Positions 44,501 to 47,500 of a stretch of DNA of 64,000 bases are shown here, one piece after another. Every line of letters starts with the position of its first letter. Position 1 is the first letter of the stretch. This stretch comes from Escherichia coli (GTDB lineage: Bacteria > Pseudomonadota > Gammaproteobacteria > Enterobacterales > Enterobacteriaceae). A program made the position numbers. Where the stretch lies: NCBI RefSeq assembly GCF_013315695.1, contig NZ_CP054353.1, one strand, 5' to 3'.

Positions 44501-47500
44501 GCGAATTTATCAGGATGATACTGACGTTGTAGATCCTGAAAACGCAGGCTCAGTGCCTGGGTATCGAGTTGATAACGGGCAGGCAAGCCAAAGAGGGTGA
44601 AGTAATCCATAACATTCTCAGGGCTGCGATCCGCCGCGATAACGGCGAATCAGGTAAAACAAACCCCACGCGCAGGCGACCACGGTGGGGTTATCGGTAT
44701 GCGCATCAAACGTGGAAGCTTTCGCCGCAACCACACTCATCTTTAACGTTCGGGTTGGTGAATTTAAACCCTTCGTTCAGGCCTTCTTTTACGAAGTCCA
44801 GCTGCGTACCGTCCAGAAATTGCAGGCTTTTGCCATCGACCACGACTTTCACGCCTTTGTCTTCAAACACGATGTCTTCCGGCGTCGGTTCGTCAACAAA
44901 TTCCAGTACATAAGCCATACCTGAACATCCGGAGGTTCTCACGCCCAGACGCAGGCCAAACCCTTTGCCGCGGTTAGCCAGAAAGGTATTTACTCGCGCT
45001 GCTGCACTGTCGCTCAGTGTAATCGACATAACCAAACCTCAACTCTTATTTTGCTTCACGTTTGCTTTTATAGTCCGCAATGGCGGCTTTGATCGCGTCT
45101 TCTGCCAGAATAGAACAGTGAATTTTCACCGGCGGCAGTTCAAGTTCTTCAGCAATATCGGTGTTTTTGATCGCCTGCGCTTCGTCGAGAGACTTCCCTT
45201 TCACCCATTCGGTGACCAGGGAGCTGGAAGCGATAGCAGAACCGCAGCCGTAAGTTTTAAAACGCGCGTCTTCAATGATACCTTCATCGTTGACTTTAAT
45301 CTGCAACTTCATCACGTCGCCACAGGCCGGTGCACCCACCATGCCGCTGCCGACGTTCTCGTCGTTGTTGTCAAAGGAACCCACGTTACGCGGATTCTCG
45401 TAATGGTCGATAACTTTTTCGCTGTAAGCCATTATAAATTCTCCTGATTCCGATACCGATTAATGATGAGCCCATTCGATGCTGTTCAGATCCACGCCCT
45501 GCTTGTACATTTCCCACAGCGGAGAAAGGTCACGCAGACGACCGATGGATTTACGAACTAACTCGATGGTGTAGTCGATCTCTTCTTCAGTAGTAAAACG
45601 ACCTAAAGAGAAACGGATAGAGCTATGTGCCAGCTCGTCGTTCAGCCCCAGCGCGCGCAGCACGTAGGACGGTTCGAGGCTTGCTGACGTACAGGCGGAA
45701 CCGGAAGAAACCGCGAGGTCTTTCAGCGCCATAATCAGCGACTCACCTTCAACGTAGTTGAAGCTGACGTTGAGAATGTTCGGCGCACCGTGTTCCAGGT
45801 CACCGTTCAGGTAAACTTCTTCGATATCTTTGATGCCGTTCCACAGACGGTTACGCAGGCCGCGCAGACGTTCCATCTCGGTCGCCATCTCTTCTTTTGC
45901 TATGCGATAGGCTTCGCCCATACCGACGATCTGGTGAACAGGCAGAGTACCGGAACGCATACCGCGCTCGTGACCGCCGCCGTGCATTTGCGCTTCGATA
46001 CGTACGCGCGGTTTACGACGCACATACAGCGCACCAATACCTTTCGGGCCATAGATTTTGTGACCGGAGAAAGACATCAGGTCAACTTTCAACTGGCTCA
46101 GGTCGATAGGCAGTTTGCCCACGCTCTGGGTTGCATCAACGTGATAGATAATGCCGCGAGCACGGCACATTTCGCCGATAGCCGCGATATCCTGCACCAC
46201 GCCGATTTCGTTATTTACGTGCATGATGGAAACAAGGATGGTGTCGTCACGCATCGCTGCTTCGAGTTCTTTCAGGTCGATAATACCGTTACGCTGCGGT
46301 GCCAGGTAAGTGACTTCAAAACCTTCGCGCTCCAGCTGACGGCAGGTATCCAGTACCGCTTTGTGTTCGGTTTTGCTGGTGATGATGTGCTTGCCTTTTT
46401 TCTGATAAAAGTTAGCAGCACCTTTGATCGCCAGGTTGTCAGATTCGGTAGCACCAGAGGTAAAGACGATTTCACGCGGATCAGCGCCAACCAGATCGGC
46501 AATCTGATTACGAGCGATATCTACCGCTTCTTCAGCCTGCCAGCCGAAACGGTGAGAACGGGAGGCCGGGTTACCAAAGGTTCCGTCCATCGTCATAAAC
46601 TGCATCATTTTCTCGGCAACACGCGGGTCCACCGGCGTGGTTGCGGAGTAGTCGAGATAAATCGGTAATTTCATTGCTCTATAAACTCCGTACATCACTC
46701 AATGCAAGGAACCAGGCTGCCGGCTGGATGTACGACCGTGTTTACGGAGTGTTTAGCACTCCGGCCTGATTCTGAATTCTTTTTATTAAGCGCGTAACTT
46801 AACGTCGATCGCGTCTTGTGTGCGGGTGCGTGGCGCGTCGTGAGTATGCTGACGACCAGACACATCCAGCACTTCCTGGTTATTAACCAGTTCGCCTAAA
46901 GTAATGTTATTGAGAAAACCGGTAAGACGGTCGCTCAAATCACGCCACAGCGCGTGGGTCAGGCATTTATCGCCGCCCTGGCAGCCGCCTTTACCCTGAC
47001 AACGGGTGGCATCTACAGATTCGTCAACGGCGCTAATCACTTCGCCAACGGCGATGCTGCTGGCATCTTTGCCTAACAGATAACCACCGCCTGGTCCACG
47101 TACGCTGGAAACCAGACCATTTTTACGCAGACGGGAAAACAGTTGTTCCAGATAAGAAAGGGAAATTCCCTGACGTTCGGAAATATCAGCCAACGGTACC
47201 GGGCCCGCTTCAGAGTTGAGCGCAACGTCAAGCATTGCGGTCACGGCATAGCGCCCTTTAGATGTCAGTCTCATGTCTTACTTCACCTCAAACTCGCCCC
47301 TGCCCGGGGTTTTTTATTGTAAAAGTGGGGGTATTGCATAGCAGGGTCAAGTCTGACATTCCCGAGTAAATTGGTCAACTATTTACTTGACTGATTTAGT
47401 CGGGTATTTAACCTTCAGTGCCATTTTTTTATCGTGGCGTTTGTACCTGTTGTCGGATGCGGTGTGAACACCTTATCCGACCTGGGATTCCGTGCACTTA

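Follow-up and report, generated by a model that had tools for sequence, protein, structure and literature searches.

The DNA immediately upstream of iscR raises the question of what governs transcription of the iscRSUA-hscBA-fdx-iscX operon in an Escherichia coli genome in which IS1 copies flank the region. In a preliminary description of the window (by which we mean the whole 64,000-nucleotide stretch of contig NZ_CP054353.1 that was analyzed), the interval 47275-47440 had been proposed to carry an IscR type-1 operator. Our analysis indicates that this interval is almost certainly the sigma-70 promoter of iscRSUA-hscBA-fdx-iscX, equipped with a tandem IscR type-1 operator through which holo-IscR would exert negative feedback. 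None of our observations conflicts with this reading. The operator is a textbook autoregulatory one that is already known and that agrees base for base with its K-12 counterpart.

The operator proper takes up 50 bp of the flagged interval (47358-47407) and consists of two sites, A and B, that abut in a 25-bp register (Table 1). The preliminary description had singled out the 27-mer ATACCCGACTAAATCAGTCAAGTAAAT as fitting the type-1 pattern. The window contains a single copy of this sequence (47381-47407, minus strand), in which the 25-bp site A is followed by AT, the two bases with which site B begins. Over its first 25 nucleotides it departs at a single position from the published 25-bp type-1 consensus, ATASYYGACTRWWWYAGTCRRSTAT (PMC6599224, PMC3899308). 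The adjacent second site that had been suspected is site B, with three mismatches; it spans the putative -35 hexamer and most of the spacer. When both strands of the 64 kb were searched with ATASYYGACTRWWWYAGTCRRSTAT at three or fewer mismatches, sites A and B were the only two matches, and none of 100 dinucleotide-preserving shuffles contained any match at this threshold. The published consensus was drawn partly from these same sites, however, which makes a consensus match on its own circular, and for this reason a matrix was built de novo.

Table 1. Coordinates of the operator, the promoter, the isc genes, and other features of the window
Feature	Coordinates	Strand	Remarks
Rfam sroE sRNA	25163-25254	-	116.6 bits; part of the usual E. 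coli content, with no relation to the operator
IS1, left copy	38038-38805		768 nt; about 3 kb beyond iscX
Rfam IS128 sRNA and ryfA	38825-39003 and 39140-39444	+	
iscS-iscU-iscA-hscB-hscA-fdx-iscX (operon body)	41679-46674	-	Seven products above NCBIfam equivalog cut-offs
iscR stability element (iscRS, Rfam RF01517)	46676-46785	-	Full length; 131.4 bits, gathering score 40
iscR (repressor predicted to bind the operator)	46786-47274	-	NCBIfam NF008110 IscR equivalog; 344.7 bits, cut-off 275
iscR 5' leader	47275-47341	-	Small hairpin and GAGG ribosome-binding site
Inferred transcription start (G)	47342	-	7 nt after the -10 hexamer; implies a 68-nt leader
Putative -10 hexamer CAGACT	47350-47355	-	17 bp downstream of TTGACC; 3 of 6 consensus positions
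IscR type-1 site B (iscRB) ATAGTTGACCAATTTACTCGGGAAT	47358-47382	-	3 mismatches to the published consensus; 37.4 bits, top score of the window
Putative -35 hexamer TTGACC	47373-47378	-	Read from the sequence, inside site B; assigned by geometry
IscR type-1 site A ATACCCGACTAAATCAGTCAAGTAA	47383-47407	-	1 mismatch to the published consensus; 31.9 bits; upstream of the -35 hexamer
IS1, right copy	58296-59063		768 nt; about 11 kb upstream of the promoter

Loci for this matrix were gathered from a species-level genome collection with a degenerate pattern on the N-terminal codons of IscR, which left the upstream DNA unconstrained. The 117 usable iscR upstream regions came from Enterobacterales, Vibrio, Aeromonas, Pseudomonas, Halomonas-like genera, Idiomarina, and others. 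An expectation-maximization motif search, given no consensus and confined to the 100 loci with no more than 75% nucleotide identity to the window in the iscR coding sequence, returned ATAGTTGACTAAAATACTCGGGTAT (28.1 bits), which is essentially the published type-1 consensus. Scoring the sites against a published IscR matrix had been suggested as a check on the preliminary description. With the de novo matrix in its place, site B (37.4 bits) and site A (31.9 bits, in the opposite orientation) stood out from all 127,952 positions scanned in the window, the third-best scoring 8.2 bits against a background of -57 +/- 15 bits. A poor score, which would have counted against the preliminary description, was therefore not what the check returned. 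The notion that both sites are chance resemblances in AT-rich intergenic DNA has the general AT-richness of such DNA in its favor and nothing more; given the shuffles, the gap of 24 bits between the weaker site and the next best among some 128,000 positions, and the conservation of the sites in more than 100 species, we give it no credence.

Two properties of the matrix bear on its meaning. It correlates with its own reverse complement (r = 0.59, with shifted controls between -0.20 and 0.12), a dyad symmetry that is consistent with a homodimeric winged-helix regulator. It also finds one strong site in the K-12 nfuA promoter (34.0 bits, next best 0.2) and one in the K-12 erpA promoter (23.9 bits, next best -0.7), which makes the motif a regulon-wide operator rather than a quirk of the isc promoter.

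The same elements recur in much of the class. A 25-mer within three mismatches of the consensus was present in 62% of the 117 upstream regions and in 0% of shuffles; at five mismatches, these fractions were 86% and 0.2%. Two type-1 sites exactly 25 bp apart were found at 44 of the 117 loci, a different distance within 15 to 40 bp being seen at only 6 loci. Aligning 19 Enterobacterales species gave a conserved block that coincides exactly with site A, site B, and GTCAGACTT, and conservation drops abruptly upstream of site A. Comparative genomics reportedly published together with the original description of type-1 sites agrees with such a wide spread. The distance to the gene differs among lineages: Escherichia, Citrobacter, Enterobacter, and Klebsiella-like genomes have a long leader, the tandem operator beginning 103 to 133 nt ahead of the iscR ATG, while site B begins 59 to 73 nt upstream of iscR in Yersinia, Photorhabdus, Vibrio, Pseudomonas, and most others. 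Among the loci numbered L002 to L121, several from Halomonas and related genera (for instance L045 and L054) and a few from metagenome-assembled genomes had weak or no type-1-like sites.

Conservation of this kind could also be read as the signature of a core promoter, the 50-bp block being a -35 element with an UP-like element that is kept for RNA polymerase and not for IscR. Indeed, TTGACC lies in site B at the right distance from the -10-like CAGACT, the region is AT-rich, and TTGAC is among the strongest positions of the de novo motif, so that part of the conservation of site B could reflect promoter function. Still, we consider this explanation most improbable. The motif is dyad symmetric, unlike a -35 hexamer, and site A, which is located entirely on the upstream side of that hexamer, nevertheless reaches its score, and does so in the opposite orientation. 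Moreover, the same matrix marks nfuA and erpA, promoters of the published type-1 regulon that are unrelated to isc, and for an oligonucleotide carrying site B there are published binding data (PMC12594620).

The tandem operator is in our preferred reading superimposed on a promoter, the elements of which were assigned largely by geometry. A generic sigma-70 scan called no promoter between 47200 and 47600, since CAGACT matches only three of the six -10 consensus positions. We retained the hexamer assignment on the strength of geometry and conservation: TTGAC is invariant across the alignment of 19 Enterobacterales species, and GTCAGACTT, which covers the -10 region, is likewise conserved across the order. 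For the start of transcription, 47342 was chosen as the only position that puts sites A and B at -65/-41 and -40/-16 relative to +1, which we take to be the positions given by Giel et al. in 2006 and 2013. We infer both the exact start and the hexamers in this manner.

A further alternative concerns the class of the sites, which might belong to type 2 or serve as the operator of a different regulator from the Rrf2 family, such as NsrR, and would then differ in their cluster dependence. Similar AT-rich palindromes are indeed bound by members of the Rrf2 family, of which IscR is one, and the IscR of the window weakly matches, below threshold, the models for NsrR, RirA, and CymR. Nevertheless, we find this scarcely credible at all, as the type-1 consensus is matched with one and three mismatches, and the literature places the isc promoter in type 1, with the clusterless form of IscR being ineffective there (PMC12594620, PMC3899308). 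The 26-bp type-2 consensus AWARCCCYTSNGTTTGMNGKKKTKWA found no match better than five mismatches anywhere in the window. Its eight best matches (five or six mismatches) lie at 24328-38961 and none falls in 47275-47440, so the type-2 reading was rejected.

Published work on E. coli fits a type-1 assignment. [2Fe-2S]-IscR represses isc via type-1 sites (PMC3899308, PMC6599224), the two E. coli isc sites are bound independently (PMC6599224), and for the cluster dependence of type-1 binding and repression one of these papers cites Giel 2013 and Rajagopalan 2013 (PMC3899308). In a 2025 paper from the Kiley laboratory (PMC12594620), reduced IscR carrying [2Fe-2S]1+ bound the type-1 iscRB oligonucleotide with a Kd of about 22 nM, which rose to above 1000 nM after oxidation with phenazine methosulfate; PiscR-lacZ was rapidly derepressed, and an erpA fragment served as type-1 probe in mobility shift assays. 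The iscRB oligonucleotide of that paper, the 30-mer AAATAGTTGACCATTTTACTCGGGAATGTC, differs from site B and its flanks (47355-47384) by one mismatch in the degenerate central spacer. At this position both K-12 and the window have GACCAATTT; in other words, the published 30-mer reads GACCATTTTACT where the genomic sequence of K-12 and of the window reads GACCAATTTACT. This discrepancy of one base may be a printing slip or a deliberate design variant. A full-text literature search with the site sequences gave no match.

These data can be carried over to the present locus to the extent that the DNA is the same, and it is the same to a high degree. From the end of the REP element (at about 47440) through sites A and B, the -10 hexamer, and the leader into iscR, the window is 100% identical to K-12 MG1655, with the same tandem layout of 25 + 25 bp, and its IscR is the same protein (WP_001241357.1). 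Only the upstream context differs, K-12 having three REP/BIME units where the window has one, and the window having its strain-specific IS1 insertions. The K-12 iscR promoter and its type-1 sites A and B are said to have been described by Schwartz et al. in 2001 and by Giel et al. in 2006 and 2013. Binding, cluster dependence, and repression are thus attributed to the present operator by way of the literature on the identical K-12 sequence. The window is a piece of E. coli chromosome, and within this species, 5,424 out of 5,426 complete genomes contain a single copy of an 81-nt operator query; its aligned part was at least 99% identical in 5,347 of these 5,424. A 421-nt query covering the trmJ-iscR spacer matched 5,425 of the 5,426 genomes and was 100% identical to strain 2014C-3075; it was covered for at least 80% in only 3,989 of the 5,425. 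This spacer shows REP/BIME copy-number polymorphism.

The repressor and the operon that it would control are both in order. The IscR of the window has 162 amino acids and retains Glu43 as well as the cluster ligands Cys92, Cys98, Cys104, and His107. Gene order and gene lengths of the isc cluster agree with the RefSeq annotation of strain 2014C-3075, with pepB lying beyond iscX and trmJ upstream of iscR. The cluster had been described as intact, and this is borne out by all of its products scoring above the NCBIfam cut-offs. Between iscR and iscS, the stability element, which is a second, known layer of isc control that acts post-transcriptionally, is intact as well. The autoregulation by IscR that had been put forward for this locus is likewise upheld, in that the sequence is that of the K-12 promoter, IscR is intact, and site B lies over the -35 hexamer, with binding taken from the literature.

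The mechanism to be expected is then as follows. Sites A and B, as two abutting 25-bp imperfect palindromes, would each accommodate one dimer of [2Fe-2S]-IscR, which is encoded by the operon's leading gene. Their occupancy would block RNA polymerase, B covering the -35 hexamer and the spacer and A lying immediately upstream. Type-1 sites are bound well only by the cluster-loaded (reduced) form of IscR, and the IscR cluster is loaded by the Isc machinery itself, which would close a negative feedback loop. With enough Fe-S clusters to satisfy demand, holo-IscR would build up and shut the promoter; under O2, oxidants, or iron limitation, less holo-IscR would be present and the operon would be derepressed.

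This arrangement is reminiscent of the iscR promoter of Pseudomonas aeruginosa PAO1, where a pair of directly adjoining 25-bp type-1 sites likewise occurs, B covering the -35/-10 interval with A upstream of it, and where the homologous A/B pair has been footprinted and mutated (PMC3899308, PMC6599224). The PAO1 site B, ATAGTTGACCTAATTACTCGGATAA, has its first ten bases and the TTACTCGG block in common with site B of the window. In PAO1, site B is the primary, high-affinity site and site A is weak (68% consensus match), whereas site A of the window is closer to the consensus (one mismatch). PAO1 also lacks a site C, a minor third site in E. coli (PMC6599224). The erpA (yadR) and nfuA (yhgI) promoters of E. 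coli carry the same motif according to the same matrix, but as a single site each, so the isc promoter is set apart by its tandem pair and by being autoregulatory. Type-2 sites such as those of the sufA and hyaA promoters are served by the same regulator and differ in having another, 26-bp motif, to which apo-IscR binds as well.

In the E. coli isc promoter, three IscR sites have been reported, of which site C is minor or weak and not conserved (PMC6599224, PMC3899308). Downstream of site B in the window, the matrix revealed no third type-1-like site, the best 25-mer scoring -12.8 bits, and the reported site C is without a recognizable sequence signal there. The leader contains a hairpin at 47296-47310 (CCCC-GGGCA-GGGG, a 4-bp GC stem), but the fold of the leader is no better than that of shuffles (z = +1.2), and the leader, hairpin included, is conserved in the closest genera only. 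Read on the plus strand, the same hairpin is terminator-like, with a T-run following it. No Rfam family overlaps the operator; subthreshold matches to the REP-derived naRNA4 occur upstream only. The single REP/BIME unit of the trmJ-iscR spacer (c. 47440-47545, three units in K-12) stops some 30 nt short of site A, on its upstream side, and does not reach into the operator.

The two IS1 copies between which the isc cluster had been placed are there (Table 1), but this position is incidental. The copies are 100% identical, lie in inverted orientation 19.5 kb apart, and are each flanked by a separate 9-bp target-site duplication (AACGATGTC and TATCTTGCA). An IS1-mediated inversion of the 19.5-kb segment was considered and rejected, given the collinearity of the window with an IS-free strain and the separate target duplication of each copy; the same two observations argue for independent simple insertions and for an isc region that has not been rearranged. 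The left insertion is common to only 2 of the 5,426 complete E. coli genomes (MSB1_4I and NZ_OZ547117.1), and an intact right junction was found in none of the 5,426. In 15 genomes, the right junction matched in two pieces, placing an IS1 within or close to this same yphA-hcaD spacer, which may be a hot spot for insertion. Just 20 nt separate the end of the left IS1 from the beginning of the IS128 match, and this copy may affect the promoter of the IS128 sRNA. In strain 2014C-3075, the sseB-sseA spacer that corresponds to the location of IS128 and ryfA has a small toxin gene, timP, annotated. At 8 to 11 kb from the operator, the IS1 copies are without evident bearing on it.

We see a slim chance that the upstream context of this strain, with a single REP/BIME unit about 30 nt from site A and an IS1 at 8 to 11 kb on either side, alters isc expression quantitatively while the operator itself is unchanged. 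Such an effect could come about via read-through from trmJ or a changed local topology. In a related vein, and with as little confidence, the exact 25-bp register of sites A and B at 44 of 117 loci might reflect a conserved dimer-dimer interaction beyond the independent-binding model for E. coli.

In summary, the operator described here answers no open question, and its value is that of a check on annotation. The recovery of the published type-1 motif by an unsupervised matrix derived from distant species could be of help in annotating other genomes. Both the type-1 motif and its tandem arrangement in a 25-bp register are found widely across Gammaproteobacteria, and the isc operon of this IS1-rich genome retains its native promoter. 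Hence, Fe-S homeostasis in this strain should be wired as it is in K-12.
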